A DNA stretch of 64,000 nucleotides from Ruminococcus sp. (lineage in GTDB: Bacteria; Bacillota; Clostridia; Oscillospirales; Ruminococcaceae): assembly GCA_021199375.1 (NCBI GenBank), contig JAJQIB010000020.1, positions 28,931 to 92,930 of the forward strand, in the 5' to 3' direction. The translations under genes and the position numbers were made by a program. The notes under the pieces are model-generated. The model made no database searches. It was not told where the DNA came from and saw only the letters and a list, made by a program, of their open reading frames with translations. Positions 1,722-43,920 of the stretch are shown piece by piece; the stretch's first letter is position 1, and each line of letters starts with the position of its first letter.

Positions 1722-1722
1722 T

Positions 1723-1760
1723 AAAAGAAGGGCTTCCCTATCAAAAAGGAAAGCCCTTTA
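1723..1760. terminator. Bidirectional terminator between convergent M23 and GH13 genes
   Basis: aagggcttcc / ggaaagccctt stem flanked by A and T runs. Confidence 0.75.
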
Positions 1761-1774
1761 TAATATATAACTTA

Positions 1775-3100
1775 TTATTTACATCTCCAGATATGATAGG
1801 ACATCGGTTCTAGCTCACTTCCGCCACCAAAGTCGTGATCTTCGCCTGTAACAAAGTCATCAGCTAATCCGTAGCCTGCATCAAAATGTGCAGTATACGG
1901 TTTATCATCAGCATTTATAGCGATAAACACACGCTCTCCTTCGAAATCACGCTGAAGTATACACTGCTTATTTGTAAGTACAGGGATTTTTATATCTCCA
2001 TAGCAAAGAGCCTTACACTCACGGTGAGCCTTGGCAAGCTTAGATACAAGCTGAGAAATATCGTTTTCCTCGAAGCTGTCAAAGCAGGGACGAAGTGCTG
2101 GATCGCCATCCTTTTTCTCTCCCTTTGCTCCCCATTCGCTTCCGTAATATATGCAAGGAATTCCAGGCATACCAAACAGCATAGTATACACAAGCGGCAA
2201 ATGGTCAGGATTTGTAAGTATGCTTGCAATTCTTGTAACATCGTGATTATCAGCAAAGCATAGAAGATGCATTCCACGGTACTGACACCAGTTTTCAGGA
2301 CCAAAACGGTTCTTAAGTGAATGACAAATTTCAAACATATTCATCGAATTAAAGCTTGAATATAAGCCCTTATAGCACTCGTAATTTGTAGCTGAATGAA
2401 GCATTTCGTCATTAACCCATCTTGAATAATCACCATGGAGCAGTTCACCTACAAGGAAGAAATCATCGCTAAGCGAATCAGTGTAGGACCGCAAACGCTT
2501 TAAAAAGTCAAAATCAAGCGAGTAGGCAACATCAAGACGAATTCCATCAATACCAAAATACTCAATCCAGTACTTAACTGCATCTAAAATGTGTTCTACA
2601 ACAGCAGGATTTTTTAGATTTAACTTGACAAGATCAAAATGTCCCTCCCAGCCTTCATACCAAAGTCCATCGTTATAGTTGCTATTTCCATCAAAATTGA
2701 TAAAAAACCAATCCTTATAAGGACTATTCCACTTATTTTGACAAACATCCTGAAACTGCGGAAAGCCTCTTCCTACATGGTTAAACACACCATCTAAGAC
2801 CACACGAATTCCTTTATCGTGAAGCACATCGCAAACCTGCTTAAAATCCTCGTTGGTGCCAAGACGAGTATCGATTTTCTTAAAATCTCTTGTATTATAA
2901 CCATGTGTATCAGATTCAAATACAGGTGAAAAGTAAACTGCATTACAGCCAAGATCTGCTATATGATCTGCCCATTCAATAACCTTTAAGATACGGTGCT
3001 CAGGAACGCCGTCATTTTCAAATGGTGCTCCGCAAAAGCCAAGCGGGTAAATCTGATAAAAAACACTCTCGTATCCCCAGTTTTTAATATTATTGCTCAT
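1775..3100 (-). CDS. GH13 alpha-amylase family (cyclomaltodextrinase/maltodextrin glucosidase-like)
   Basis: DGVFNH, GIRLDVA, VGELLHG, DNHD conserved regions; ATG 3100 has an aaggaa RBS. Confidence 0.9.
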   Translation of the reverse strand: MSNNIKNWGYESVFYQIYPLGFCGAPFENDGVPEHRILKVIEWADHIADLGCNAVYFSPVFESDTHGYNTRDFKKIDTRLGTNEDFKQVCDVLHDKGIRVVLDGVFNHVGRGFPQFQDVCQNKWNSPYKDWFFINFDGNSNYNDGLWYEGWEGHFDLVKLNLKNPAVVEHILDAVKYWIEYFGIDGIRLDVAYSLDFDFLKRLRSYTDSLSDDFFLVGELLHGDYSRWVNDEMLHSATNYECYKGLYSSFNSMNMFEICHSLKNRFGPENWCQYRGMHLLCFADNHDVTRIASILTNPDHLPLVYTMLFGMPGIPCIYYGSEWGAKGEKKDGDPALRPCFDSFEENDISQLVSKLAKAHRECKALCYGDIKIPVLTNKQCILQRDFEGERVFIAINADDKPYTAHFDAGYGLADDFVTGEDHDFGGGSELEPMSYHIWRCK

Positions 3101-3473
3101 TATTATCAATTCCTTTCGTATGAGGGTTATACCCTGGTGATTAATATAATGATGTATCATTATATATATTATTATACCATACCAAGGGTTTAGATGCAAT
3201 GATAAAAAATGCACCTATATTTTCAACTTCTTTGGAGAAAATGCACAGTTTTTTCTTGCGATTTTCTAAAGCAATAAATTAAAAAGAAAGAAAATCACCA
3301 AATAACGTAATTCAGCCTTCCAGCTTATAAATTTACAAAAGTTCATAATATTATATTTTCGATTATTTTTCATGAAAAATTTAAAATTCCACTTGAAATT
3401 TGTGACTGTTTGTGTTATAATCATAATGGAATATTGTATGTAGAAATACTGTTACAAGGAGCGACATAGATAT

Positions 3474-5382
3474 ATGAATAATCGTAAGACAATCGGAATA
3501 TTGCTTGCTCAGCCTGAAGAAAATTACCAAAATCAATTTCTTCAGGGTGTTACTGAACAAGCCTTTGCACATGACTATGATTGTATGGTATTCGCGGTCG
3601 AGTATAAGGATGTAAAGGATAACACTTCAATTATAGGGTCTGATAATATCTTCGAGCTTGTAAACTTCGATTTACTTGATGCTGTTATAATAGTTCCAGA
3701 CACAATTAAAAATAAGCCCACACTCGAAAGACTTATAGAGAGAATAAAAAGTGAGTTTGATGGTGTTGTTGTATCAGCCGACACCAAAATTGAAGGCTTT
3801 GAAAATATTGACACCGATGATTCAGATGCTATTGAAAAGATTTGTGACCATCTTATTAATGATCATGGCGCAAAGGTTATCGATTTTATGGGAGGTATAC
3901 CGGGACATCCTCACTCGATAAGAAGACAGGAGGGTTATGTTCGTGCTCTCAAGAAGCATGGAATTGAAATTGAGTGCAAGCGAATACATGATGGTGATTT
4001 TTGGTATAACAAAGGCGAGCCCATTGCTGATGAAATCCTTAACTCATCACATCCCTTCCCTGATGCAGTTGTCTGTGCAAGTGATTCTATTTTGTGATGC
4101 TTTTTCGAAGCGCGGCATTAAAACACCAAACAATATTTTGATCACCGGATATGATTCTATAGAAGAAGGAAGGCTTCATAATCCTGCAATTACATCTTCG
4201 AGCTTACCTTCTAAAATTACAGGAATAAAGTGTGTAAATTATATTCTAAAAAAGCTCGAAGGAAAGCCGATAATCAGTGATTTTGATAAGGAAACAATAA
4301 TAAAAGCTCAAAGCTGTGGATGTGAACAGGATAACATAACATATCATAGCAACAATTCAGCATATACTGATTCAAACTATCGTACACCATTTCAAGGATA
4401 TTCAGACATAATGATGAGCAGCTTAATATCAGTAAATGATATGGACGATATGCTTGCAAATATTAACTGGTACACCTACATGATGCAGCCATTCTCTTCA
4501 TATATACTTTGCCTAACTGACGACTGGGTAGGGGCTGGAGATAACGAGGATGACTACCGCAGAAACGGATATTCTGACAAAATTCATTTGCGGCTTATTA
4601 GGCGAGATGAAAATAATGGCAATGTAGAGGATATTGTATTTGATAAGCATGAGCTTTTGCCGAGAAAATACTTTGAACGTCAGCTGCCGTCAATTTATTT
4701 TTTCTATCCTCTGCATTTTCTGGATAGATGCTTTGGATATACGGTAATGGTCTACGAGAATAAAACGACAACTCCAACGCCAGATTATCGTCCATGGACA
4801 CATTTTGTGTCAAATGGACTTGAATGTTTAAGACGCAGACTTCATATTAGAAAAATGTATGATAAACTTAAAAGCATCGCTGACTTAGATAGTCTTACAG
4901 GACTTTACAACAGAAACGCTTTTAATAGTAACGTAGAAGCTATTGCAAAACGCACCAAGAATGAATCCTTTAACGCTTTATTTCTTATGGCAGATCTTAA
5001 CTACCTAAAGACAATAAACGACACATTTGGACACCTAGCTGGAGATATAGCTCTAAGAGCAGTTGCAAAGGCAGTTCAAAGCGTATGTGACGAAAATGAT
5101 CGCAGCTACCGCTTTGGCGGAGATGAGTTTATGATTATTGCTGACGGCACACGCGGAGACGAACGAATTAAAGAAATGAAGGAAGGCATCGAGCATTATC
5201 TCGAAAAGTATAATGAAACCTCGAAGGATCCCTTTATTGTAACAGCGAGTGTGGGTGCAGTTTGCACTACTATAACAGATGCTGAAATGATAGATGATAT
5301 TATACGCACCGCTGATGAGATTATGTATTCGGATAAACAACACAAAAAGCGTAGACTAATAAATCCACTAAAAAAGGTATGA
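3474..5382 (+). pseudogene. LacI-type sugar-binding sensor-GGDEF diguanylate cyclase split by a frameshift near 4090
   Basis: ORF 3474-4097 ends ...VVCASDSIL*; the next frame resumes FCDAFSKRGIKTP...ITGYD (the rest of the PBP1 fold) and then DLNYLKTINDTFGHLAGD and RFGGDEF. Confidence 0.85.
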
Positions 5383-23939: not shown

Positions 23940-25483
23940 ATGGATAAATTAAAAAAGATTGCCGAGCTTTTATTTCCACCTGTAGCAGTTGCGATTTTGA
24001 TTATGGTTATCTTTTATACTCAGGATTTTTATCCCTTTGGAGATGGAACTGTTACCTGGTGCGATATGACTCAGCAAACAATTCCTTTACTGCTTGATTT
24101 TAAAGACATACTTGATGGCAAAAGTAGCTTGTTTTTTAACATTAATAATGCAGGATGAATGAACTTTTACGGTGTGTTCTTCTTCTATCTGTCAAGTCCG
24201 TTTAGCTTTTTGGTAAAATTTGTAGACAAAGAAAACCTAGTGCTTTTTGTAAACATCCTTGTTGTTCTTAAGCTTAGCGTATGTGCTCTGACGGCATACA
24301 TTTTCTTTAAATTCTCAAATAGGGAGCTTTCCTTCGGGATTTGTGCATTACTCTCGATTGCATATGCGCTATGCGGTTATGGATTGCTCTTTTATCAAAA
24401 TCTCATGTGGCTTGATGTAATGTATATGTTTCCAATATTTATGTTAGCTCTAGAAAGACTCATAAATAAAAAAGGTATTATATTATACATTTTAAGTCTG
24501 AGTATAATAATATATCTAAATTTCTATTTAACCTATATGGTGGCGGTATTTGCAATTCTTTTTGCCGGAGCGTTTATTCTTACTGATAAAAACAAAGAGA
24601 ATGCACGAGAAGCGAGTACGAGCTTAATACTTGGCACTATAATCTCACTTCTTTTGACTGCATTTGTTTGGCTTCCAAGCCTATTTGAGTATCTTTCATC
24701 TGGACGTTCAAAATCTATTATCGAAACACTTGAAGCTTCAAATACACTTTCAAGCTATAAAACAGTGCTGCCACTTTTGTTTTGCAGCGGACTTATTTTC
24801 GCTATAATCCTTGTTAATGGACTATCAGGAAGAAAAAGAAGTCCAAGATTAAATCGATATATGCTGTTATTTTTCTTAACACTCGTTCCATTCTTTGTAG
24901 AGCCAATCAACGAAATGTGGCATACTGGAAATTATATGTCCTTCCCGGCAAGATACGGATTTATAACAATATTTATAGGTCTAATTTGCTGTGCCGATGT
25001 TTTTGAGGAGGATATTAAATTACTAAATAGTAAAAGGGCTAAATACAATATTCCTTTTACAGCTCTTGGTGCAGTATTAGTTATAGTATATTTTTCGTGG
25101 TCGCTTAAATATATCGAGCAAAAGGGACTTGATTTGTGCACCTATACAAAAAGTCTTTGGGGCGACGACACTTCATTTGAGAATCTTTCCATTATGTTTT
25201 TTGTTGCTTTAGCCTGCTATGCTGTCCTGTACCTTATTTATCGTTATGCAAGAATAAATGTATCTAGCTTTGCTTTTCTAATGGTTGTAGTTTTGATGGT
25301 GGAATCTTCGGGAAATGTTCGTGTTTATCTGACAAGTGCATATAGTCATAATGACACACGAACAGAAACCTTTCAGGATGTCGTTTCTATGGCTGATAAA
25401 ATTGATGATGACAGCTTTTACCGTATTATTACCGATAGTAAAATAACAGATTACAACACAGTTGGCGGACTTGGTTATCCCTC
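23940..25483 (+). pseudogene. yfhO: YfhO-family membrane protein, 5' part (in-frame TGA at 24156-24158; interrupted by the IME)
   Basis: WCDMTQQ, NNAG*MNF, YQNLMWLD, SFPARYGF; frame continues GYP|SLGHYTSLT once the element is removed. Confidence 0.85.
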
Positions 25484-25608
25484 CGTGAAGCACTTATAAG
25501 TACACCCACTGTTAAATCAGGCAATAAACCATATTCGATGAATATAAAATAACGCAACATGAGGCTATGTCTCCGAAACTATTAATGGAGGCATAGCTAA
25601 TTTTTCTC

Positions 25609-25637: not shown

Positions 25638-25680
25638 GATAACTGATACATAAAGCGTGACCAATCGTGAGGTGATTGCT

Positions 25681-26376
25681 ATGAATATTGCTATCGTTGA
25701 TGATGAACCTGTATTCTTAAAACAACTTCATAACAGATTAAGAGAAATGAAACTACCCGACTGCGAAATACACGAATTTACAAGTGGGAAAGACTTATTG
25801 AGTTTCTATGTCAAGGGAATGTATGAGGTTATCATACTTGATGTAGAGATGCCTGATCTGAACGGGTTGCAGACTGCTGAAAGAATCAGACAGATAGATA
25901 ACTCTGTTATTATTTCTTTCCTGACGAATTATGCCGAATTTGCCGTTCAGGGCTATGATGTAGGCGCGTTTCGCTATATATTGAAAAATCAACCTGACTA
26001 TGTATATACCAAACAGCTAAATTCTATCATTGCTGAATGCCAGCAACGATTTAGGACTTTCACTTTCAACAATAAAAATCTGTCATTTAAGTTCAGGTTG
26101 ACAGACATTCTTTACTTTGAAGGACATAGAAGAAAGGTATCGCTATTCACGCTTAATGGTGAATTGGAGTACGGCGGTGATTTTTCAAGTGTGTGTGGTG
26201 AGTTGTTAAAATACAATTTCGCAATGATAAACCGTGGAATACTTGTAAATCTTGACCACATACAGAATATTACTAAATATGATGTGATTCTCAGTAATGG
26301 AAAGAAAGTCCCAATAGGCAAAACATATAAAGATGAGATAGTTGCTCGCTATCTTAACTACGCAACAGGGAGATGA
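25681..26376 (+). CDS. agrA: LytTR-family response regulator (AgrA-like)
   Basis: IVDDE, ILDVEMP receiver motifs; LytTR tail (YFEG...INRGILVNL..I). Confidence 0.9.
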   Translation: MNIAIVDDEPVFLKQLHNRLREMKLPDCEIHEFTSGKDLLSFYVKGMYEVIILDVEMPDLNGLQTAERIRQIDNSVIISFLTNYAEFAVQGYDVGAFRYILKNQPDYVYTKQLNSIIAECQQRFRTFTFNNKNLSFKFRLTDILYFEGHRRKVSLFTLNGELEYGGDFSSVCGELLKYNFAMINRGILVNLDHIQNITKYDVILSNGKKVPIGKTYKDEIVARYLNYATGR

Positions 26377-27671
26377 TCAGATTGCCTATATGGATTGAAA
26401 GTGGTATAGAAATTGCAAATGTGGCTATCGAAATTGCATTGATATTTCTTTACTTCTCACTATTGAGCAGGCGGAAGAGCAACCCTATTATAATGGTGGC
26501 TACATTTTTGTCAGCAACGATTATTCTTTCTTTTGTTGTTCTGTATTTTGAGAATATATTCTTTTATATGATAACAACAACTTTTCTCATAGCTGCAATT
26601 TCATTTGCCTGTTTTGAAGATAGCATAAAACATAGGATATTCTGGACAGTAATGTATTTGATGATAATATCGGTGTCTGAGCCGATTGTTATCGGAATAC
26701 TATGTATTGCAAATTTGGGTACTCCTGAAGATTTCTTACAATCTGGTTTAGGACGCTATCTCGGTATGGTGGGGACTGATCTGATTTATTTGTGGCTTAT
26801 AGGTATGATGCACCGAATCATAAATAAAAGGATAAGAAATCTTCCTGTGAAATATTGGATTTTGATAGTCTTAATCCCGATAATAAGCATTTTTCTGCTA
26901 CAAACCATACTCGACATCTTTACAGCGTACAGCACGATAAACTATTGGTCATTAGGTATATCACTTTTAGGCATTATATACATCAATATTGCGATGTTCA
27001 ATTTTTTTGAAAGTTATGAAGATAAAATAAAGTTGAGATACCTTGAAACTATGAAACATCAAGAACAAGAAAATTACAAAATGCTTACTCTTTCATACAA
27101 GCAAGTACGAGAATTTAAACACGATATTGAAAATCAATTCTTAGTTTTGAATGATATGTTAGAGAACAACGATACCGATTCTGCCAAAGAGTATCTTGTC
27201 AAACTAAGCTCATTTGTAAGGCTTGCTAACAGGCTTTGCTATACTGGAAATAACGCCGTAGATTCTATCGTGAACATCAAAGGTTCTCTTGCTCAGACCT
27301 ATGGTATAGATTTTATTTGCAAGGTCAATATCATAACAAGTATCAAGGCTGATGAATTGGAACTTTGCCGTATCATAGGAAACGCTCTTGATAACGCAAT
27401 AGAGGGCTGTCAGAGGGCTGATGTTCCACATAAGCATATTTGGATAAGCCTAACGGAAGAACGAGAGAAGCTATTTATTGTCATTACAAACACATCAGAT
27501 AAGGTAGATACATCTGCTTTAACATCAACAAAGAAAGAACAAGGGCTTCACGGCATAGGGATAAACAGTATCAAATCTTCCGTAGATAGATTGGGAGGGT
27601 TGGTAAGTTTCGATTATGAGGACGGAATTTTTAAGCTGAATATTATGGTTCGTAATTGTTTGCTGATTTAA
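26373..27671 (+). CDS. agrC: GHKL sensor histidine kinase (AgrC-like)
   Basis: Multi-TM N-terminus, FKHDIEN H-box, GNALDNAIEG, HGIGINSI. Confidence 0.9.
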   Translation: MIRLPIWIESGIEIANVAIEIALIFLYFSLLSRRKSNPIIMVATFLSATIILSFVVLYFENIFFYMITTTFLIAAISFACFEDSIKHRIFWTVMYLMIISVSEPIVIGILCIANLGTPEDFLQSGLGRYLGMVGTDLIYLWLIGMMHRIINKRIRNLPVKYWILIVLIPIISIFLLQTILDIFTAYSTINYWSLGISLLGIIYINIAMFNFFESYEDKIKLRYLETMKHQEQENYKMLTLSYKQVREFKHDIENQFLVLNDMLENNDTDSAKEYLVKLSSFVRLANRLCYTGNNAVDSIVNIKGSLAQTYGIDFICKVNIITSIKADELELCRIIGNALDNAIEGCQRADVPHKHIWISLTEEREKLFIVITNTSDKVDTSALTSTKKEQGLHGIGINSIKSSVDRLGGLVSFDYEDGIFKLNIMVRNCLLI

Positions 27672-27680
27672 TCATCTGAC

Positions 27681-27767
27681 TTTCGGTACAAGAAAGCGAC
27701 ATTTCAGTACACTTTGCGGCACTTTTGTGTAAAATCTATTGAAAAAATCGCCAGCGTGTGCTATGAT
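27681..27767 (+). promoter_or_regulatory. LytTR (AgrA)-box direct repeats and agrB promoter
   Basis: TTTCGGTACA (27681) and TTTCAGTACA (27702) 21 bp apart, upstream of TTGAAA-N17-TATGAT (27739-27767). Confidence 0.7.
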
Positions 27768-27850
27768 TTTTGCAGGAAGTGATTCAGAAATGATTTTTGC
27801 AGGAAGTGATTCAGAAATGATTTTTGCAGGAAGTGATTCAGAAATGATTT
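27763..27850 (+). repeat. 27-bp perfect tandem repeat x3 (plus a partial) spanning the agrB RBS and start
   Basis: Unit atgatttttgcaggaagtgattcagaa at 27763, 27790, 27817; encodes MIFAGSDSE. Confidence 0.95.
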
Positions 27851-28434
27851 CAAAACTTGCAAAAAACATAGCACACTTTTTTGTGATTCAGAACATAACG
27901 GAAGAATCCAAAGAGGTAATCTATGCATATGGAATGGAGCTGCTGATCTCCGATGTGCTGAATACCATCATCGTCCTGCTGATTGCTCTGATCTCCCATA
28001 CACTGCCTGCGGTTGTTGTATTCATAGCCGTATTTATGGGGTTGAGAAAGTTTGTGGGTGGGTATCATGCTAACAGTCATCTGAGCTGTATGTTCACGCT
28101 TGTCATGGTGATGCTGGCTTTCTCTTATGGCATTTGCAATATAAGCGGACAAATTGCTCAGATATTCAGCATTGGCTTCATAACGATAGCATTGCCCATC
28201 ATTTTCTGTATCGCTCCCGTTCCGCATCCGAATAAACCGATGTCAGAGGAAAAGGGTATCAAGTTGAGGAAACGGAGTATTATACTTGCCGTTGCCCTTT
28301 CTGCTGCTGTGATCGCACTGCTTGTATTCCAATACCAGAAAATAAGCCTTTATGTATCAAGCGGAATACTGCTGTCAGCAATCATGGCACTGCTCGGTCA
28401 CTTTTTGAATCGGGGTGATAACAGTAAACGATGA
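27844..28434 (+). CDS. agrB: Accessory gene regulator B (AIP-processing peptidase)
   Basis: YAYGME, LRKFVGGYHANSHLSC (catalytic H/C), APVPHPNKP motifs. Confidence 0.92.
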   Translation: MISKLAKNIAHFFVIQNITEESKEVIYAYGMELLISDVLNTIIVLLIALISHTLPAVVVFIAVFMGLRKFVGGYHANSHLSCMFTLVMVMLAFSYGICNISGQIAQIFSIGFITIALPIIFCIAPVPHPNKPMSEEKGIKLRKRSIILAVALSAAVIALLVFQYQKISLYVSSGILLSAIMALLGHFLNRGDNSKR

Positions 28435-33298: not shown

Positions 33299-33892
33299 TC
33301 AAGCAGAGGTCTGCTCGGTGATGCCGTGACGGAGTTCATACTCACGCACACGGCGATAGAAAGTGTTAGCTGACAATCCCATTCTCCGCATAAAGTCCCT
33401 GCCCGTAATGTTCTTCGACTTCCATTCCCCATAGAGCTGCCCGAACCTCGTCCAGTCGGTGGGGATAGGCTTTCGCCCGGTGTACTTGCCCTGTGCCTTA
33501 GCGATCTCGATGCCCTCACGCTGTCGCTGTTTGAGCTGTTCACGCTCCAATTGTGAGAGGGCTGCGAACACGGTCAACATGAATTTTCCTGACGGTGTAT
33601 CGGTGTCGATTTTCTCCTTGTGGCTGACGATGATTACTCCCTTTTCGGTGAGCGTGTCGATGATGTTCAGCAAGTCCTTCGTGGAGCGCCCCAGACGGCT
33701 GATACTCTCGATGTAGAGCGTATCGCCCTCACGCACATAGTCCAGCATTGCCCTGAGCTGAGGACGGTCTGTGTCCGCTCCTGACAGCTTCTCGGAGAAG
33801 ATGCGGTCAACCTGATAGTCGCACATGATCTCATGCTGTCTCGCTGTTTCCTGATGTTCCGTTGAAACTCTGATGTATCCTATTTTGCTCAT
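33299..33892 (-). CDS. Small serine recombinase (resolvase/invertase) with C-terminal HTH
   Basis: GYIRVST, SGADTDRPQL, SISRLGRS motifs. Confidence 0.92.
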   Translation of the reverse strand: MSKIGYIRVSTEHQETARQHEIMCDYQVDRIFSEKLSGADTDRPQLRAMLDYVREGDTLYIESISRLGRSTKDLLNIIDTLTEKGVIIVSHKEKIDTDTPSGKFMLTVFAALSQLEREQLKQRQREGIEIAKAQGKYTGRKPIPTDWTRFGQLYGEWKSKNITGRDFMRRMGLSANTFYRRVREYELRHGITEQTSA

Positions 33893-33943
33893 AGCTTTTG
33901 TTTCCTTTCTGATGTAAAATTTTTTCTTTTTGTTGATTGACGG

Positions 33944-34019
33944 TTGACTTATTGGTGGTGATGATGTATAATTACTGATAAGGGTAGGCACTTAGCTTGC
34001 TCGTGAAAATCGGAATTTA
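33944..34019 (+). repeat. Cassette 5' site 1: promoter, TAAGGGTAGGCA box, 16 nt, AAATCGGAATTT
   Basis: TTGACT-N17-TATAAT (33944-33972), box 33979-33990, IR 34007-34018; homologous to 37082-37157. Confidence 0.75.
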
Positions 34020-34033
34020 GAGGAGTAGCACTT

Positions 34034-34495
34034 ATGGATTTTTTAGATTTAGATGATGAAGTATTGAATGATGTCCAGAAAGTAATGAGCTATGATTCCT
34101 CTATTCCGCTTCATTATAGGATTTTAGGAAAACTGAACTATAATGATGATCTTCGCAATTGTATCAGATTTATTGAAGCAAATAGAAGTCTATTTATGGA
34201 TGAATACGCTTATCTGATGCTTGAATCAGCAGTTGAGATGTGCCTTAATTCTGTTGTCAATGAGGATGGAGAGATATTTAATCTTTCAGATATCCCCAAA
34301 AATCATACTTATAAACCCGCTCCAATGGAACTGGAATACATCGAGTATCTTCTCAAAAATGGAGCAAGTCCGCTTCTTCCAAAACATTTTAATCAGTATG
34401 AACATATTGAAGATATGGAGGAAGATTGTTCTAATCAGATGGGTGTTCAATTTATATTGTCAGAGGTGAAAATGCTATTTGACAAATACTGCTAA
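34034..34495 (+). CDS. Hypothetical acidic cargo protein, 153 aa
   Basis: gaggag RBS; AT-rich; opposite strand to the flanking backbone genes. Confidence 0.75.
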   Translation: MDFLDLDDEVLNDVQKVMSYDSSIPLHYRILGKLNYNDDLRNCIRFIEANRSLFMDEYAYLMLESAVEMCLNSVVNEDGEIFNLSDIPKNHTYKPAPMELEYIEYLLKNGASPLLPKHFNQYEHIEDMEEDCSNQMGVQFILSEVKMLFDKYC

Positions 34496-34516
34496 ATTCT
34501 GATTTTTCTAAGTAAC
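34493..34516 (+). repeat. Cassette 3' site 1
   Basis: TAAATTCTGATTTTTCTAAGTAAC; 20/24 identical to 37660-37683; first 13 nt are a 12/13 inverted repeat of 34007-34019. Confidence 0.75.
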
Positions 34517-34529
34517 TATACATATCCTC

Positions 34530-34567
34530 AATGGCAAGGAGAAACCACTCTCCTTGCCGTTATTTTT
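34530..34567. terminator. Terminator between the cargo gene and the relaxase
   Basis: atggcaaggaga / tctccttgccgt stem plus T tract. Confidence 0.75.
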
Positions 34568-35978
34568 ATTCAAGCTGACTTTTCTTTCTCTTGGCAGATT
34601 GTTCGTTTTCCATATATCGGGAAAGTGTTCTCTGACTGTCACGCTTCTGCTGTGCAAGCCTTGAAAGCCTGTCCGCTTCTTTCTTTAGGGCTTTACGCTC
34701 CGCACTCATCTTGGCATAATCCTCACGGGCTTTCTTCAGCTCGTCCTGCAAGTCCTTGATCTTGGGAATAACGCCATTCGGAAACAGTTCTTTCAGCTTT
34801 TTACGACACTCATGATACTGGTCGAGTTCGTAACGGCAGTTCTCCCCATATTTCTTTTTAGCCTTTCCCTCCAAAGAAGAATAGTTCTTGTAATAGACCT
34901 TATACTTGCGGTATTCCTCGATAGCCGGAATTTGCTCCTCCAAAGCGTGGATACGGTCGCTCAATTCAAACTGCGGTGTTGACATGACCATAAATTCGGC
35001 AAGTGCCCTGTGAGCTGCGCTCTCCAATTCTTCAAGGGTGGAATTGCTTGCGTTCATCTCGTTGAGTGCCTTGCTTACCACCTTCATATTCTCACGGTCT
35101 GCCCAATTCGTCAAACCCTGAGACAGCTGAAATTTCTCGGTTGTGGTGCGAATAATTCTCGCTGTCGGGCGGTGCGACATTTGGTACTTGTAACTCTCGA
35201 TACGCTTTCTGATCTGCTGGCTCTCATAGAAGTAGCCCAGCGTTTTTGCTCTTGTAAACTTCGCCCTCGGATTGCGTTCCTTTTGCTCCGCAAGCATAAA
35301 TTTCAGGTCTATTTTGTGGTCGGGATTGTAGTCAACCAATATGCCGAAATCAGCACACTTTGCAAGGAAATCCTCAAAATCCTCGCTGACCTTGATAACC
35401 TCGTCAATGGCTCGTTTAAGCTGTTCTTTCCACGAAAGATTTTGCTTGTCAAGCTCCCACTCCCAATGGCTCTTACCCTTTGAAAGATGCGGATTTTCAA
35501 TGATAGAAAGTCCGTGTTTCCTGCAAAGTTCGTCCGAAATCGTGCGGAGTTTGCTCCACGCTCGGTCGGGAATTTTGCCCTGATTATGCTCGGTTTCAAA
35601 GGTCTTGCCCGTGTAGAAATTTACATTGTTCACGATGATGTGATTATGGATATGCTCATGGTCGCAATGCACAGCTAAAACATACTGATACTCGTCATTG
35701 AAAAATGCCTTGCAAAGCTCCTGCCCGATAAGCAAAGCCCGTTCGGGAGTGACCTCTCCGGGGGCAAAGCTCTGAATTATGTGCTGGCACTCGCTTCGGC
35801 TTCGTCCTGTGCCGACTGACTGCCTGATGTTCCTAAACTGTTCTGATGCTCCACATGGAGTAGATACGCACAAGTTGCTAACAACATATTTGCCGTCTGC
35901 GGTTTTGTCTGGGTTGCAGATATAAGCAATTGCGCCGTATGTTCCCGTGTGGATCGTATGGATACGAGTAACTGCCAA
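34566..35978 (-). CDS. Relaxase/mobilisation nuclease (MOBP-like)
   Basis: AIAYICNP (catalytic Y), HIIQSFAPGE, HCDHEHIHNH 3H motif. Confidence 0.9.
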   Translation of the reverse strand: MAVTRIHTIHTGTYGAIAYICNPDKTADGKYVVSNLCVSTPCGASEQFRNIRQSVGTGRSRSECQHIIQSFAPGEVTPERALLIGQELCKAFFNDEYQYVLAVHCDHEHIHNHIIVNNVNFYTGKTFETEHNQGKIPDRAWSKLRTISDELCRKHGLSIIENPHLSKGKSHWEWELDKQNLSWKEQLKRAIDEVIKVSEDFEDFLAKCADFGILVDYNPDHKIDLKFMLAEQKERNPRAKFTRAKTLGYFYESQQIRKRIESYKYQMSHRPTARIIRTTTEKFQLSQGLTNWADRENMKVVSKALNEMNASNSTLEELESAAHRALAEFMVMSTPQFELSDRIHALEEQIPAIEEYRKYKVYYKNYSSLEGKAKKKYGENCRYELDQYHECRKKLKELFPNGVIPKIKDLQDELKKAREDYAKMSAERKALKKEADRLSRLAQQKRDSQRTLSRYMENEQSAKRKKSQLE

Positions 35979-36529
35979 ACTTCCTCTAACCTCGCTTTCA
36001 TATCGGCAATATCCTCATCGTAGAGTTTGCCGCCTTTATTCACTCTATGGGCTACCTGATTGAACGAATTGGAGATAGATGAGATGTATCGTGCTATCTG
36101 TTTTATGTCCTCGGTATCTTCCTCAACATTCATCACGGTGAGTGCAGAATATCTGCAAAAATCACCCCTGCTTCTGAAACTTGTTTCAGTATATCGGCGG
36201 TTGATTGCTTCAAGCTCCATATCGTTCACTCTGAATGTGATAAGGTGCTTGCGTACCTCGCTCGGCTCGGTGTCCTGCGGTGGGGATTCGCCCTCGGTGG
36301 TTTCGGGCGGTTCTGTGAAATCCACCTCGCCCGATTCCGTGACTTCCAACATTGGAACAGGCTCGGCAGTGGTGTCCTCGGCGGTATCTGTTTCGGGATT
36401 ATCGGACAGCGTATCCGCCTGCATTTCGTCCGCATAGGTGTGGGCAAGTTTCTCCGCAAGCTCCTCGACTTGCTTATGCTTGAACAGCTTTGCAAGGAAG
36501 CCTTTTTCTGGCTTTTTGAATATTGACAT
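35777..36529 (-). CDS. mobC: MobC relaxosome accessory protein with acidic N-terminal extension
   Basis: ITFRVNDMELEAI RHH and ISSISNSFNQVAHRVN MobC motif; overlaps the relaxase start. Confidence 0.8.
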   Translation of the reverse strand: MSIFKKPEKGFLAKLFKHKQVEELAEKLAHTYADEMQADTLSDNPETDTAEDTTAEPVPMLEVTESGEVDFTEPPETTEGESPPQDTEPSEVRKHLITFRVNDMELEAINRRYTETSFRSRGDFCRYSALTVMNVEEDTEDIKQIARYISSISNSFNQVAHRVNKGGKLYDEDIADMKARLEEVWQLLVSIRSTREHTAQLLISATQTKPQTANMLLATCAYLLHVEHQNSLGTSGSQSAQDEAEASAST

Positions 36530-36602
36530 TGTGTTGTCCTCACTTTCTCGGCGGTTCTGCCGCCGTTCTTCGATTGCTCCTGCAATCGCTCTCAGGGGTC
36601 TT

Positions 36603-36667
36603 AGGGGAATTTTCCCCTGACAAGCCGTATAAAGTTTACGATTTTCCATAATCGTAATACTTTATAC
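36603..36667. promoter_or_regulatory. Candidate oriT (paired inverted repeats upstream of mobC)
   Basis: aggggaa / ttcccct and a 41-bp imperfect palindrome gtataaagtttacgatt...aatcgtaatactttatac. Confidence 0.35.
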
Positions 36668-37081
36668 CGTGCTTGTGAAAATTGATCGGGCGTTTCACGC
36701 CCTCACTTGTTTTTCGCTGTTTCACGGCGTTTTTTCACGCTCCTGCGTGATTTGGAGCTATGCGACTTTCTCTCTGTTCCGCACGGCTCTGAGAGTATTT
36801 TACCGGGGTTCGGCGCAGTTATGATGCTGGGTGGGCGGCAGTCTGGTGAAACCTTCCGTTCGGCTCTCCCTGAGCCGATTTTGAATGTCGATATGTTTAT
36901 CGTTACATTCAAATTTCTGCCCTGCCTGACCGCCCATGAAAATACCCTTCTACTTTACTACCGACGTTTTTGAGAAAATGCTCATGATTTTCCGAAAAGT
37001 TTACAGTTTGTTCATGACGATTCTCCCTCTTGCATAGTTTCAACATGGAATTTCTGTGTATGATGACGGTGATTTCAGAGG

Positions 37082-37157
37082 TTGCTTTTTCGGGGACGGT
37101 ATGATATAATTTAGGGGTAAGAGTAGGCATATGGCTTTCTTACGCAAATCGGAATTT
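37082..37157 (+). repeat. Cassette 5' site 2: promoter, TAAGAGTAGGCA box, 16 nt, AAATCGGAATTT
   Basis: TTGCTT-N17-TATAAT (37082-37110), box 37118-37129, IR 37146-37157. Confidence 0.75.
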
Positions 37158-37170
37158 GAGGAGATATTAT

Positions 37171-37662
37171 ATGGCTGAGATATGGGATGCATATGATAAT
37201 GAATTTAATAAAATAAAGAATATTACATTATTGAGAGGAGAACCAATTCCTGATGGCATATATCATTTGGTGGGTGAAGTTATTGTTAAACATATAGATG
37301 GCACTTACTTGATTATGCAAAGAGATTTTGAAAAAAAATTCGGTGGAATGTGGGAGTTGACAGCAGGTGGTTCTGCATTGCAAGGTGAAACGCCTTTAGA
37401 GTGTGCAGTAAGGGAATTGAAAGAAGAAACAGGTATTGAAGCATTACAAATTATGGAAATTGGGAGATTTGTGCAAGATGTTAACCACTCTCTTTATGCT
37501 GAATATCTATGTGTTACTGATTGGAAGAAAAATGCAGTTTCTCTTCAAGAAGGAGAAACTGTCAATTATAGGTGGGTAGATAAAAAGAGCCTTTTGGAAA
37601 TGAGCCAAGACGAGTTAGTATCATCAAGGGCAATCAAACTTATTAAATCATTAGATATATAA
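37171..37662 (+). CDS. NUDIX hydrolase (cargo)
   Basis: Nudix box GGSALQGETPLECAVRELKEETG. Confidence 0.92.
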   Translation: MAEIWDAYDNEFNKIKNITLLRGEPIPDGIYHLVGEVIVKHIDGTYLIMQRDFEKKFGGMWELTAGGSALQGETPLECAVRELKEETGIEALQIMEIGRFVQDVNHSLYAEYLCVTDWKKNAVSLQEGETVNYRWVDKKSLLEMSQDELVSSRAIKLIKSLDI

Positions 37663-37683
37663 ATTATGATTTATCTTAGCAAC
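37660..37683 (+). repeat. Cassette 3' site 2
   Basis: TAAATTATGATTTATCTTAGCAAC, starting at the NUDIX stop codon. Confidence 0.75.
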
Positions 37684-37902
37684 AAAAAACTGAATATCAA
37701 TATCATATGCAGAGCAACACCAGCTCTGCATTTTTTATACCCGATTCAAAATTCCCCATAACATTTTCACGATAAGAAAAGTTTTATGGCGCACTCAACT
37801 TCATGCGCACTGCGAATAGACTTTCACCTCGAAAGTGCGCTATAATTTTAGTATGGGGCTTAAGTATAGGCTCGACTAAAATTTCAGAATGGTGGTGATG
37901 AT

Positions 37903-39034: not shown

Positions 39035-39126
39035 AAGTTTTGAAAAAAGACTTGCCATATTCGGTTTTCTGCGCTATAATAGTTGTATCATCGAATATGG
39101 TTTGCTTTGATTGGAAAGGAGTTATT

Positions 39127-40791
39127 ATGGCAAAGCAAACTACTTACAATGTCGGGATCTATGTGCGTTTGTCGCAGGAGGACGAGCGTGCAGGCGAATC
39201 CCTTTCGATTGAAAATCAGAAGAAGATGCTGACGGAATATGTCAGCAGACAGGAGGGCTGGAATCTCATCGAGATCTGCGAGGACGACGGCTATTCGGGA
39301 ACAAGTTTCGACAGACCCGGTGTCAGACAGCTTCTTGAAGATGCAAAGTCGGGAAAGATAAATTTGATCCTCTGTAAAGATTTATCCAGATTTGGTCGTA
39401 ATTACATCGAAGTCGGTCAGTATATCGACTATATTTTCCCTTCGTTCAATATTCGCTTCATCGCCCTGAGCGACAACGTGGATACCCTCGATAGAAACAG
39501 CTCGGCAATGGATCTTATGCCTGTGATGAATTTGTTCAACGAATGGCACGCCGCCAATACTTCAAAAAAAGTACGAAGTGTTATGGCGGCAAATTCAAGG
39601 CAGGGCAAGTATCTGGCGGCTTCCGCTGCTTACGGTTACATCAAGGCTGATGATGAAAAGCATACGCCTATCATTGATGAAGAAGCCGCCGTTATCGTAA
39701 GACGTATATTTGAGCAGAGGGCAAGAGGGTTAAGTCCGAAGCAGATCGCTATACAGCTTAACAAGGACGGCATCGCAACTCCCTCAGATCATCGCTATCA
39801 GCTTAAAGGCAAAGAAAATCCCCTTGTGACTTCACATCTGTGGAATGACTGTATGGTGCGTGGCATTCTTAACAATGAGATTTATATCGGAAATCTCGCA
39901 CAGCAGAGAGTAACAACAGTATCCTACAAAAACCACAAGCAGATACGCAAGGACAGGTCGGAGTGGGTCATCGTAGAAAATACCCATGAGCCAATCATTT
40001 CAAGGAAACTGTGGGATAAGGTTAGAGAGGTCGAAGCATCGGTGAGTATTGGTAAAATTACAAAGGAGGGTGTGATTCGCCCTTTGTCGGGCTTCATGTA
40101 CTGCCCTGAATGCGGATATAAGATGAAAATGAACAGAACTATGCACACCACAAAGAAGCGAGGTACTTACGAGACGGTCAGCTATCGCTGTGGTACTTAT
40201 GTGAGAAGTGGAATGGACGGCTGCACTCCTCATTCTATTTTGGAAAGAGTTATTTCAAAGGTCATTGTTGATGATATTAGAGCAAAGGCAAGGCTTGCCG
40301 TTGAGGACGAGGACACACTCCGTGAAGCCGTCCGCAAGCGCAGACAGGCTACTGCCGATGCGGAGAGCCAGCGCAACATGAGAGAACTTCGTGAGGGTGA
40401 GAAACGGCTTGCACAGCTTGAAACGCTTATCAGCAAGACCTATGAAGAAAAGCTCCTCGGTACTGTACCCGAAGAACTCTGCGTGAAAATGCTGAATCAG
40501 TATCTTGATGAACAGAAGATGCTGAGAGAGAAAGTTGCTGTGCTGAAAGAAAAGTGTGAAAGTGCTGAACAGGCTGAAAAAGATGTTGACAGGTTCGTTG
40601 AAAACATCAAAAAGTATGTCGATATTCAGGAGCTTACCCGTGAAACTTGTCTGGAACTTATTGAGTACATCGTGGTCGGAGACCGTCCCGAAATCAAGGG
40701 TGAGGACAGGCAGATACACATATTCTACAAGTTCCTTGATAAGGGGCTTACGGAAAAAAGAAACATTCTGCTGCCGCAGAATGTGGAGTAA
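39127..40791 (+). CDS. Large serine recombinase (TnpX/TndX-like integrase)
   Basis: IYVRLSQED, DDGYSGT, KDLSRFGRN, recombinase domain, CPECG...C zinc ribbon, coiled coil. Confidence 0.95.
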   Translation: MAKQTTYNVGIYVRLSQEDERAGESLSIENQKKMLTEYVSRQEGWNLIEICEDDGYSGTSFDRPGVRQLLEDAKSGKINLILCKDLSRFGRNYIEVGQYIDYIFPSFNIRFIALSDNVDTLDRNSSAMDLMPVMNLFNEWHAANTSKKVRSVMAANSRQGKYLAASAAYGYIKADDEKHTPIIDEEAAVIVRRIFEQRARGLSPKQIAIQLNKDGIATPSDHRYQLKGKENPLVTSHLWNDCMVRGILNNEIYIGNLAQQRVTTVSYKNHKQIRKDRSEWVIVENTHEPIISRKLWDKVREVEASVSIGKITKEGVIRPLSGFMYCPECGYKMKMNRTMHTTKKRGTYETVSYRCGTYVRSGMDGCTPHSILERVISKVIVDDIRAKARLAVEDEDTLREAVRKRRQATADAESQRNMRELREGEKRLAQLETLISKTYEEKLLGTVPEELCVKMLNQYLDEQKMLREKVAVLKEKCESAEQAEKDVDRFVENIKKYVDIQELTRETCLELIEYIVVGDRPEIKGEDRQIHIFYKFLDKGLTEKRNILLPQNVE

Positions 40792-40826
40792 AATATTTTT
40801 GGGTGTGCTTTTATGGGGTTCTCCTC

Positions 40827-41955
40827 TTTAGGTCACTATACCTCGCTTACAGATAACGACAATATGACCTTGCAAAAGAAGCTTGGATATACATCTGTTT
40901 GGATGGAGGTTGGAACAGCAGGAGGAACACGGTTTACAAATGCGTTGTATTCTGCAAAATACAAGCTAGTGAAATCAAACAGCAGTGAGGATTCGATATA
41001 TTCGTCTAATGGATATAGTATTGTAGAAATGCCATATAGCTACGGACTGGGAATAATCACTGACAGCGACCTGAGTGATTGTGAAGAAATACCCGATGAG
41101 CTTACTCGTGCACAAATTCAACAGTATATCTTTTCATCTCTTTATAATGACAAAACGCTTATAACTGAATATGATTATAACGCTGAAACATCATCAGGTA
41201 TTAGCTATAACAGCAACAATGGTAAATATGCAATTTCAAATGGTGCTTGCATTTATTACACGATAGACGTTTCTGACAGACAGGTGCTGTATGCAGACTG
41301 CTTTGATGATATTTCTAATAATCTGTCAGAGGACTATTATGATAGTCTTGAGGTATCTGTAAACGGAATTACAATATCAAATAGTTATCCTTCAAGCACT
41401 AAGAACTGTTTACTTGAGCTTGGGGAGTTTGAAGATGAAACGGTTACCGTTACAATAAAATGTAAAAGTCAAATTAAATGCTACTCGTTTGGAGTGTTTA
41501 GCCTTGACAGCGAAGTATTAGAGGAGGCTATAGAAGCAACCGACTGTGCAAATTTAACCTATGATGGAAGCAAGCTCATTGGAAATACTACAGTTAGTGG
41601 AGAAAAGACCTGCGTTTTGAGTGTTCCTTATAATGATGGATTCACTGTAAGGGTAAATGGTGAGAAGGTTGAGTATAGTCGTGTTTTCTCTGATTTTATA
41701 TCATTTGAGCTTGACAATGGCGAAAATGAAATTGAAATAAGCTTTATCCCAAAAGGCTTTGTGCCTGGTCTTGTTATCACAATAGTAGGTGCGGCAGTAT
41801 TTGTTTTGTATATCCTATTTAAAGATAGGATTGAATTTAAAGACATAGTAGGTAAAATATCTATTATTGCTGTTGGAGCTGTCGTAGTAATAGGATTCAT
41901 TTTAGTATACGTTTTTCCTATGGTGGTAAAAATGTTTACAGCTTTTAAAGAATAA
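40827..41955 (+). pseudogene. yfhO: YfhO-family membrane protein, 3' part
   Basis: GHYTSLT..., LSVPYNDGFTVRVNG, EISFIPKGF C-terminal YfhO motifs; continuous with 25483. Confidence 0.85.
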
Positions 41956-43847: not shown

Positions 43848-43920
43848 GAGTTATTAGCTCAGTTGGCAGAGCATTTGACTTTTAATCAAAGGGTCCGGGG
43901 TTCAAATCCCCGATAGCTCA
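43848..43920 (+). tRNA. tRNA-Lys (anticodon TTT), CCA not encoded
   Basis: Acceptor GAGTTAT/ATAGCTC, D-arm TAGCTCAGTTGGCAGAGC, anticodon stem TTTGA/TCAAA with loop CTTTTAA, T-arm CGGGG-TTCAAAT-CCCCG. Confidence 0.97.

Follow-up and report, generated by a model that had tools for sequence, protein, structure and literature searches.

A 23-bp inverted repeat was found to bracket unrelated single genes in two expression slots of a mobile element of Ruminococcus sp. Dozens of unrelated genes in other elements and in chromosomes of Ruminococcus-like bacteria are flanked by the same repeat pair, which suggests a system of gene-cassette exchange that differs from integrons. We consider it somewhat probable that the two boxes are the ends of exchangeable single-gene cassettes, which sit in fixed expression slots and would be swapped by a trans-acting site-specific recombinase. 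The analyzed window is a stretch of 64,000 nt (GCA_021199375.1, contig JAJQIB010000020.1, positions 28,931 to 92,930, forward strand), and all coordinates given here are positions within this window. For comparison, 79 related loci from genomes and 76 loci of metagenomic or viral origin were used.

In the window, a split yfhO gene holds approximately 15.3 kb of inserted DNA (25.5–40.8 kb). The core common to relatives is smaller (7.7 kb), and the window element is known from assembled contigs only. The GC content is about 0.37–0.39 in the cargo regions compared to about 0.48 in the backbone. Between slots A and B lies a mobilization module on the minus strand (34566..36529), which comprises a MobA/VirD2-type relaxase (34566–35978) and a MobC/NikA-like protein. 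Two serine recombinases are candidate enzymes. The small one (197 aa; 33299..33893, minus strand; Pfam Resolvase, 1e-42) scores weakly, well under the cut-off in every case, against the XisF, CcrB and Mpi invertase models and is present only in contexts of the window element. The large one (39040..40791, plus strand) carries Resolvase, Recombinase, Zn ribbon and DUF4368 domains and is presumed to be the integrase of the element. No tyrosine recombinase was detected among the 30 window ORFs scanned, in agreement with the original prediction.

The combination TAAGRGTAGGCA-N16-AAATCGGAATTT occurs exactly twice in the window, at 33979 and 37118 on the plus strand (0.00 copies expected from 100 shuffles), and the 3′ site TAAATTNTGATTTNTCTNAGNAAC was likewise found in exactly two copies, at 34493 and 37660 (0.03 expected). 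Both pairs of boxes had been predicted at these positions. The spacing of exactly 16 nt holds in both window slots and becomes 15–16 nt in relatives. The two 3′ sites are identical at 20 of 24 bases, and their first 12–13 nt form the inverted complement of AAATCGGAATTT as predicted, except for one G.T mismatch in cassette A and one G.T and one G/A mismatch in cassette B.

On sequence comparison, the universal part of the site proved to be an inverted repeat of 23 bp, with the 5′ copy GTTGCTAAGAT-AAATCGGAATTT and the 3′ copy AAATTCTGATTT-ATCTTAGCAAC. The core of the repeat pair is TAAATC(G/A)GAATTTR, a 5-4-5 palindrome (TAAAT-NNNN-ATTTA) with an asymmetric spacer. At position 6 of the inner repeat, 41 of 45 left sites have a G and 44 of 45 right sites have an A; this asymmetry is equally expected from G.U wobble in an RNA stem. 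The inner end of the repeat is more conserved than the outer tip. In the metagenome set, the right repeat was a requirement of the scan, which accounts for part of its conservation there. On the cassette side, conservation is limited to one R/Y position, so that a classical two-arm crossover site is not evident. The TAAGRGTAGGCA box, originally regarded as part of the site, is just the 5′ arm and loop of a predicted mRNA stem-loop peculiar to this element lineage, with 89% paired cells over 29 leaders (30–52% in slid controls) and with A-U to G.U changes. The inverted-repeat boxes were retained and redefined as the 23-bp pair.

In each slot, a strong promoter is followed by the left repeat, the RBS with its ORF, the right repeat and a terminator; only in this lineage does the leader stem-loop lie between the promoter and the left repeat. 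The left repeat is found immediately after a −10 box and 250–2500 nt upstream of the right repeat. The cassette itself contains an RBS and one ORF, which is often terminated by the stop codons of the right repeat (TAA, TGA and TAG or TAA across the three frames).

Slot A is a complete expression module of promoter, leader, cassette and terminator (33894..34564, plus strand), located between the start codon of the resolvase and the stop codon of the relaxase. Its sigma70-type promoter TTGACT-17-TATAAT (33944..33972, plus strand; 11/12 match) is kept in every occupied slot A. The plus strand then carries the leader stem-loop GGGTAGGC-ACTTA-GCTTGCTC (33982..34002), which includes the originally described TAAGGGTAGGCA box, the left repeat (33996..34018; inner 12 nt AAATCGGAATTT at 34007–34018), the interior with the RBS and the ORF 34034–34495 (34019..34493), the right repeat AAATTCTGATTT-TTCTAAGTAAC (34494..34516) and an intrinsic terminator (34530..34571; hairpin 34530–34561), which is conserved in slot A relatives. 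Together with the T at 34493, the right repeat yields stop codons in three frames. To the encoded protein of 153 aa no Pfam or NCBIfam family was assigned, and its AF2 model (pLDDT 92) had no match in the PDB. In 24 related loci slot A is vacant, with only 11–13 bp in place of the module, and in approximately 11 related loci it is filled by other ORFs.

The promoter of slot B, TTGCTT-17-(TG)TATAAT with a TG-extended −10 (37082..37110, plus strand), adjoins the oriT region. It scores under the threshold of the promoter scanner, yet it is conserved in all relatives retaining slot B. A promoter had been predicted for each slot and is present in both. The slot B promoter is followed on the plus strand by the leader stem-loop GAGTAGGC-ATATG-GCTTTCTT (37121..37141), the left repeat (37135..37157; inner 12 nt at 37146–37157), the interior with the RBS and the NUDIX ORF 37171–37662 (37158..37660), the right repeat AAATTATGATTT-ATCTTAGCAAC (37661..37683; one mismatch to the 23-mer consensus) and an intrinsic terminator (37707..37740; hairpin 37707–37731). 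In relatives, the NUDIX cargo is swapped for about 20 unrelated ORFs. Both cargo genes had been described as antisense to the backbone. Only cassette A runs against its neighbors; the NUDIX gene shares its direction with the large serine recombinase and the genes downstream.

Taken over both slots of the element, 31 slot proteins fall into 27 families. In total, approximately 45 distinct cassettes are bracketed by the same repeat pair, and 76 slot and cassette proteins represent 59 unrelated families, a count that includes the cargos of box-less slots. Among them are GNATs, CAAX proteases, Imm5/SUKH immunity proteins, NUDIX enzymes, hydrolases and kinases. In the metagenome scan, the 3′ box was identified at 74 loci in at least 6 flank contexts. 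Besides both element slots, the repeat pair occupies ICE-like regions, several intergenic sites of chromosomes, and tandem arrays in Ruminococcus/Oscillospiraceae DNA. The system had been placed inside the IME; both slots are indeed located there, but the pair is not a property of the element. Outside the element, the sites lie next to housekeeping genes (OGG, a tRNA U5-methyltransferase-type RNA methyltransferase with TRAM domain, upp, an HD hydrolase, an S11 peptidase and GHL10) and ICE-type genes (ImpB, NYN and ParB-methylase). No recombinase was found among them, and a dedicated enzyme, if any, must therefore act in trans at these sites. Many slots of relatives carry different ORFs despite having no repeats, and cargo turnover can therefore also proceed without them.

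Integron cassettes (IntI, attI, attC) are similar in several respects: they are compact single-ORF units from a very diverse pool with a platform-supplied promoter, their stop codons sometimes lie inside the site, acetyltransferases, immunity-type proteins and small unknown proteins are frequent among their cargo, and the platform is found on both mobile elements and chromosomes. However, the integron attC site is an imperfect palindrome of 57–141 bp 3′ of the ORF with GTTRRRY/RYYYAAC cores, and no attC-like structure is present here, consistent with the predicted distinction from attI/attC integrons. Here, inverted repeats flank the ORF on either side, each promoter-terminator slot holds one cassette, arrays repeat whole modules, and none of the slots examined has a tyrosine integrase next to it. 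The host bacteria, Oscillospiraceae, are Gram-positive.

The homology among relatives ends at the inner ends of the repeats. Flanks of 85–96% identity extend through the left repeat to its final base and set in again with the first base of the right repeat, whereas the interiors are dissimilar. For slot A, homology runs out at 34017–34020 and restarts at 34486–34495. For slot B, it runs out at 37154–37162 in several relatives and restarts at 37661–37662 in L015 and L023. The original interpretation as a cassette-capture system is thus partly supported: the slots for exchangeable genes and the breakpoints at the inverted repeats were found in the alignments of relatives, while the definition of the site had to be revised.

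In total, the comparison yielded a single exchange pair and a single case of inversion. The same cargo is located in slot A of L115 and in slot B of L127 (94% identity over 636 nt). The outer repeat halves are slot-specific despite the common cargo, which places the crossovers within approximately 12 bp on each side. In the inversion case, a 407-bp interior of L083 is exactly inverted compared to L085 and L118 (99.5–99.8% identity) and is bounded by a perfect repeat pair. The flanks of L083 and L085 are 99.75–100% identical over 380–400 nt, and the downstream flank is 94.7% identical between L083 and L118. The contigs come from independent assemblies, whose k greatly exceeds the repeat length. 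Both sites of this invertible segment carry an A, and it contains no convincing ORF.

A trans-acting site-specific recombinase would recognize the core TAAATC(G/A)GAATTTR, and recombination of left with left and of right with right sites on two replicons would exchange the cassette interiors, as a natural form of recombinase-mediated cassette exchange. The enzyme could be the 197-aa serine recombinase of the element or a host recombinase. The central G (left) and A (right) may render the two sites incompatible; inversion would therefore be blocked and every ORF kept facing the promoter, and an A in both sites would permit inversion as in the case observed. In engineered Cre/lox and Flp/FRT cassette exchange, two incompatible sites allow a double reciprocal exchange in fixed orientation, and identical inverted sites lead to inversion. 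The pattern described here matches, whereas we infer the enzyme, the crossover point and the G/A-site incompatibility; the engineered systems are artificial and use known enzymes.

In the pdif (XerC/XerD) modules of Acinetobacter, short recombination sites in inverted orientation also bound gene modules, which occur in many plasmid and chromosomal contexts, depend on a host enzyme in trans, and are reported to undergo module exchange and inversion (PMC11705084, PMC9947245, PMC12907356). The pdif sites are 28-bp dif-like sequences of two conserved 11-bp arms and a 6-bp spacer, in contrast to the 5-4-5 dyad in a 23-bp asymmetric repeat with an unconserved cassette side, and here single ORFs are wired into a promoter and a terminator.

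The repeats could instead be mainly expression elements of a reusable promoter-UTR-terminator platform, with turnover by homologous or illegitimate recombination at the conserved flanks and no dedicated recombinase. Pairing of the 5′ and 3′ UTR would stabilize or process the mRNA, and the three-frame stops would insulate translation. Promoter and terminator enclose both repeats, which are hence transcribed, and fragments of cargo A were found among metatranscriptome contigs. The predicted mRNA fold of cassette A closes by a long-range 5′-3′ stem (z = −4.8), the repeat mismatches are skewed to the sense-strand G.T type (104 versus 36 of the antisense type), and the A-U to G.U changes of the adjacent 5′ stem-loop are typical of RNA. 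We nevertheless regard this explanation as rather unlikely. The predicted fold of cassette B is devoid of 5′-3′ repeat pairing, and the sequence is conserved beyond complementarity over unrelated contexts. RecA-type recombination is very unlikely to confine the crossovers of an exchange to approximately 12 bp on either side or to invert a segment exactly between perfect repeats of 12 bp, and dozens of unrelated ORFs joined at the same nucleotide would be left unexplained.

Known invertons and shufflons (Hin, Gin, Mpi, RecV; PMC7672463 for hsdS invertons) likewise have inverted repeats around a flippable segment, and gut bacteria possess recombinases acting in trans on many sites. The outside promoter and the interior found in both orientations within near-identical DNA would fit a phase-variation switch, in which a host invertase turns the ORF on or off against a fixed promoter and cargo diversity is a by-product. 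This is improbable, since 0 of approximately 44 distinct ORF cassettes from independent assemblies are in OFF orientation, the conserved central position differs between left and right sites, and the one invertible example is the segment lacking a convincing ORF. Mixed orientation was not seen in two metagenomes that carry the invertible locus. No recombination product or excised form was detected within a sample either; the raw reads for the L085 locus gave almost no coverage. Furthermore, known invertons flip promoters or alternative coding segments, whereas here unrelated whole ORFs replace each other.

In mobile insertion cassettes, of which Bacillus cereus MIC231 is an example, passenger genes are enclosed by insertion-sequence-like terminal inverted repeats with no transposase inside. 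Passenger genes between 23-bp terminal inverted repeats and many chromosomal intergenic copies without an internal enzyme are also seen here, and non-autonomous transposons of the mobile insertion cassette or MITE type, moved by the transposase of an insertion sequence in trans, were considered. We judge them quite improbable: mobile insertion cassettes travel with their repeats and generate target duplications at varied sites, whereas here the outer repeat halves remain with the slot when the cargo moves, every copy lies in a single orientation right after the −10 box and before the terminator, and target-site duplications are not evident in the flanks inspected. In addition, none of the cassettes encodes a transposase, and conservation of the repeat peaks at its inner end rather than at the outer tip. 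Paired operators of a DNA-looping dimeric repressor that co-regulates accessory genes, positioned at the cargo boundaries by coincidence, would agree with the palindromic core and with the left box between promoter and RBS, but are highly improbable, as the breakpoints, exchange and inversion at the boxes would be unexplained and the sites have no linked regulator gene.

Outside the cassette slots, box-less homologs of the cargo A family occur in ordinary chromosomal contexts.

The 5′ pattern TAAGRGTAGGCA-N16-AAATCGGAATTT was found in the window only at 33979 and 37118, with zero matches expected from shuffled sequences, and the 3′ pattern only at 34493 and 37660, with 0.03 expected. This confirms the two composite motifs of the original prediction, both in their location and as non-chance matches. 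AAATCGGAATTT is the inverted complement of the inner 12 nt of the 3′ box. The predicted gene layout was recovered as well: both genes, that for cargo A (34034-34495, 153 aa) and that for a NUDIX protein, have a promoter, a leader of about 60 nt, an RBS, the ORF, a 3′ box beginning at the stop codon and an intrinsic terminator. In the following, the RBS and ORF are termed the cassette interior, the 5′ and 3′ boxes the left and right repeats, and the whole unit from promoter to terminator slot A (cargo A) or slot B (NUDIX).

The only hit to Rfam 15 at gathering threshold in the window was a tRNA at 43848, no family being assigned to the leaders or the 3′ boxes, and a sensitive scan of 33900-37800 returned chance-level matches only. 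A riboswitch or other known RNA was rejected, since no Rfam family was obtained at gathering or permissive thresholds. A long hairpin in the presumed oriT region (36603-36690) gave spurious mir-276 matches on both strands, and the sequence after it, GCTTGTGAAAATTGATCGGG, is similar to the cassette leader GCTTGCTCGTGAAAATCGGAATTT.

Both slots belong to an element with five recognisable components between 33.1 and 40.8 kb, namely a 197-aa serine recombinase, a MobA/VirD2 relaxase, a MobC/NikA-like protein, two small unknown proteins and a large serine recombinase with DUF4368. It is an integrative mobilizable element in that it has a large serine recombinase, a relaxase and an oriT region, lacks conjugation machinery and lies inside a host gene. 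The latter is yfhO, whose N-terminal part was located at 24159-25499 (Pfam profile positions 62-489) and whose C-terminal part at 40813-41955 (positions 500-835). These parts are about 15.3 kb apart, so the inserted DNA exceeds the 7.7-kb core common to relatives. The insertion also contains agr-like genes (LytTR regulator, GHKL kinase and AgrB; 25657-28434) and encodes a 1110-aa LCAT-like protein, and it may be a composite or tandem element. As predicted, no tyrosine integrase was detected in the window (no Phage_integrase match among the 30 ORFs scanned).

For comparison, 79 related loci from Ruminococcus albus, R. flavefaciens, R. callidus and Oscillospiraceae genomes were collected in a relaxase-based scan. 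Slot A extends from the start codon of the resolvase to the stop codon of the relaxase. It is reduced to 11-13 bp in 24 relatives, and about 11 others have the same promoter and terminator with different single ORFs. Slot B, which lies past the oriT region, is never empty in the relatives and holds about 20 unrelated ORFs. Where the boxes are present, homology to the window stops at 34017-34020 and restarts at 34486-34495 in slot A, and stops at about 37154-37162 and restarts at 37661-37662 in slot B. This is where the inverted repeats end on the cassette side, and the alignment of relatives thus bore out the expectation of different ORFs, or an empty site, with breakpoints at the repeats. The two boxes co-occur, as a slot that lacks one also lacks the other. 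R. flavefaciens FD-1 carries three element copies (contigs L016, L017 and L019) with relaxases 88-89% identical to that of the window, and the slot cargo differs in each; Ruminococcus sp. YRD2003 and R. albus AR67 likewise have several slots. A degenerate copy was found on the 420-kb megaplasmid pRUMAL01 of R. albus 7 (L003, 6000-11270), with a truncated relaxase, an empty slot A and a different 147-aa ORF in slot B, whose leader and 3′ box are decayed repeats.

The search was extended to metagenome contigs, selected by the presence of the 3′ box, and to a viral collection, which yielded 74 and 2 loci, respectively. In the viral contigs, the 5′ pattern gave chance matches only, and the two real loci were found with the 3′ pattern. 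The repeat pair occurs in at least six flanking contexts. Besides both slots of the window-type element, these comprise a chromosomal site encountered frequently, next to an 8-oxoguanine glycosylase gene and, slightly further away, a gene for a tRNA U5-methyltransferase-type (TRAM-domain) RNA methyltransferase, a site adjoining ImpB/MucB polymerase and NYN genes, a site 3′ of a ParB-methylase gene, and sites adjoining upp, HD hydrolase, UPF0029, S11 peptidase, GHL10 and permease genes. The recombinases and the relaxase of the element are absent from the non-element contexts. No recombinase or transposase was found next to the chromosomal slots scanned or among the cargos, and the subset of neighbouring ORFs scanned in the other contexts gave no Phage_integrase match.

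In the non-element contexts, the left box starts 1-2 nt past a consensus −10 hexamer and reads GTTGCTAACAT-AAATCGAAATTT or similar, which is an inverted copy of the entire 23-nt 3′ box. The left repeat of the window-type element has a diverged outer half (GCTTGCTCGTGA), a segment that also forms the 3′ arm of a 5′ stem-loop. TAAGRGTAGGCA, which the original prediction had taken as a site, is present but represents the 5′ arm and loop of this lineage-specific leader structure. Over 29 leaders, 89% of the cells of the stem are paired compared to 30-52% for slid controls, and the stem shows A-U to G.U changes. RNAalifold predicted no structure for the same 29 leaders, and the alignment supports the hand-specified stem only moderately.

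As a less likely alternative, the repeats, which lie within the transcript, could function at the RNA level, with the cargo turned over by ordinary recombination. The predicted fold of cassette A contains pairing between the untranslated regions (z = −4.8) and repeat mismatches are enriched for sense-strand G.T, whereas the predicted fold of cassette B shows no such pairing. A role of the repeats in expression could coexist with one in recombination.

The cassettes with coding capacity contain one ORF, rarely two, all oriented with the promoter, and the start codon lies 10-30 nt past the left repeat. Many of these ORFs have no stop codon of their own, and it is provided by the right repeat, in which TAA (T plus the AA of the repeat), TGA (AAATTCTGA) and TAG (ATCTTAG) jointly cover the three frames. 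The 76 proteins encoded in slots or cassettes represent 59 unrelated families. Pfam matches include enzymes (GNAT acetyltransferases, CAAX/Rce1-like proteases, FMN reductase, alpha/beta hydrolases, AAA_33/CPT-like kinases and NUDIX hydrolases), immunity proteins (Imm5-like, SUKH-1 and SUKH-2) and DUF2262, GyrI-like and LUD-domain proteins. By inspection of their sequences, further cargos resemble EamA or MFS transporters or a beta-lactamase-like protein.

Cargo A matched no Pfam or NCBIfam family. It belongs to a small family of about 25 sequence clusters, all from gut Oscillospiraceae-type samples, and the AlphaFold model is confident (pLDDT 92.4) with zero fold matches in the PDB. Other family members reside in ordinary chromosomal contexts without boxes; candidate box remnants beside these homologues were rejected, as the resemblance was not above background. 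Parts of cargo A are present in metatranscriptome RNA contigs.

Many locus pairs have flanks whose 85-96% identity extends to the final base of the left repeat and restarts at the initial base of the right repeat, and their interiors share nothing. In roughly 40 of 45 cassettes (by eye), a purine adjoins the left repeat on the cassette side, and the base preceding the right repeat is mostly a pyrimidine. With this extension, the core becomes TAAATC(G/A)GAATTTR, a 5-4-5 palindrome with an asymmetric spacer. Of the 45 left sites, 41 have G at the central position, and of the 45 right sites, 44 have A.

One interior was found in both orientations. A 407-bp segment 3′ of the ParB-methylase gene is exactly inverted in metagenome locus L083 relative to L085 and L118 (99.5-99.8% identity), and the flanks of L083 and L085 are 99.75-100% identical over 380-400 nt; compared with L118, the downstream flank is 94.7% identical. 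The inversion is not an artefact, because the assemblies are independent and the repeats fall well short of any assembly k. At this locus, the sole one found in both orientations, left and right sites alike carry an A at the central position. The interior (822-1228 in L085) is GC-rich, non-coding and full of perfect 11-18-bp palindromes, with an internal third repeat-like copy near 1020-1035 of L085 and no match to an Rfam family. Raw reads from two metagenomes, at near-zero coverage of the L085 locus, contained no joints at the repeats and no mixed orientation within a sample. This segment is what a phase-variable inverton, a less likely alternative, would produce. None of the approximately 44 distinct ORF cassettes was seen inverted.

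Exchange between slots is documented by a cargo shared by two loci, L115 in the slot A context and L127 in the slot B context (94% identity over 636 nt). The similarity extends from a few nucleotides past the left repeat up to the right repeat, and the outer repeat halves and all flanks are slot-specific. These outer halves do not travel along with the cargo, as the terminal repeats of a mobile insertion cassette or MITE would, and no direct repeats indicative of target-site duplication were evident in the flanks inspected by eye. Repressor operators, the last alternative, share with the other three that they do not account for crossovers which, in unrelated contexts, are limited to about 12 bp at either end. 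Sequence comparison delimits the cassettes and reveals the diversity of their cargo, one exchange and one inversion.

In the best-supported reading, cassette interiors are exchanged between slots by a site-specific recombinase that is provided in trans. This would involve two reciprocal crossovers, one between left sites and one between right sites, and the central G/A difference would render left and right sites incompatible. Such incompatibility would explain why no ORF cassette was found inverted and the perfect pair inverts. We infer the enzyme and its crossover point, the site incompatibility and the capture of new ORFs. The 197-aa serine recombinase adjoining slot A is a candidate for the enzyme, and it is absent from the chromosomal contexts. 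The cassette interpretation of the original prediction is largely supported and extended in its scope, the proposed recombination mechanism being unproven. Taken together, we tentatively propose, with somewhat less than even confidence, a novel integron-independent cassette system in gut and rumen Firmicutes, in which a trans-acting recombinase, by natural exchange between heterospecific inverted-site pairs, would move a large pool of single ORFs, including toxin-immunity proteins, drug- and metabolite-modifying enzymes and NUDIX hydrolases, among chromosomes, integrative mobilizable elements and ICEs into promoter-terminator slots in a fixed orientation.

Integrons are the textbook platform for the capture and expression of gene cassettes. 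They and the pdif modules of Acinetobacter are the closest analogues, relative to which the system described here is new; a literature search with the repeat sequences and with cassette, inverton or Ruminococcus terms found no description of it. An integron attC site is a 3′ imperfect palindrome with R''/L'' and L'/R' boxes and GTTRRRY/RYYYAAC cores, whereas the 23-bp 3′ box has neither a local palindrome nor a GTTRRRY core, and its inverted partner lies 5′ of the ORF at 0.25-2.5 kb. An IntI-type tyrosine recombinase with attI and Pc beside the cassettes was not found among the scanned ORFs. Instead of promoterless head-to-tail arrays behind one promoter, there is one cassette per promoter-terminator slot. 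The dif-like sites of pdif/Xer modules consist of two inverted 11-bp arms and a 6-bp spacer, whereas the dyad here is only TAAAT-N4-ATTTA and the cassette side of the repeats is variable past one R/Y position. Occurrence on different replicons, inverted bounding sites and the inversion and exchange seen are common to both; this likeness is one of working, not of membership.

To our knowledge, integrons are essentially confined to Gram-negative bacteria, and we know of no settled origin of their cassettes. If the proposed reading is true, a second, mechanistically different cassette platform exists in abundant gut and rumen Firmicutes. It would give immunity and detoxification genes, and possibly resistance genes, a hidden path of spread between chromosomes and mobile elements, and would be an independent system for studying the origin of tightly trimmed ORF cassettes. 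It could also serve as a compact natural tool for exchanging cassettes in a set orientation in Gram-positive bacteria. Should the repeats mainly be expression signals, the locus is still a widespread modular expression slot with very fast cargo turnover, a view that by itself helps the annotation of Ruminococcus accessory genes.

Several loci showed further arrangements. Tandem arrays were found in L093 (2200-4560) and L108 (330-1560), in which each unit comprises promoter, left repeat, ORF, right repeat and the same terminator, suggesting that the entire module can also be duplicated or moved. This differs from integron arrays in that promoter and terminator are repeated with the module. A non-coding region of L094 (12370-12660) contains two back-to-back minimal cassettes with GC-rich palindromic filler between them, the repeats being 9 nt apart in the first (AAATCATAATTT-TGCTCCGCA-AAATTATGATTT-ATCTAAGCACC) and 15 nt apart in the second; both are candidate empty sites. 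A 46-mer representing an empty site gave only chance-level matches in plasmid and phage collections, apart from R. albus 7. By inspection, the repeats have no similarity to the element ends or to dif.

The chromosomal cassette of L116 (about 1640-4190, 3′ box on the plus strand) carries a group II intron-type reverse transcriptase ORF of 442 aa with a YADD motif. This insert starts with GTGCG, precisely where the left repeat ends on its inner side (...AAATCGGAATT|GTGCGCCC), and precedes a DUF998 cargo gene. One isolate-like run (X3) has contigs in which the NUDIX interior (window 37220-37700) has a depth of 11 compared to 23-24 in the flanks, i.e. half, with contig breaks near 37220-37248 and 37647-37700. 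Two element copies, or a mixed population, differing in the NUDIX cassette would fit this depth.
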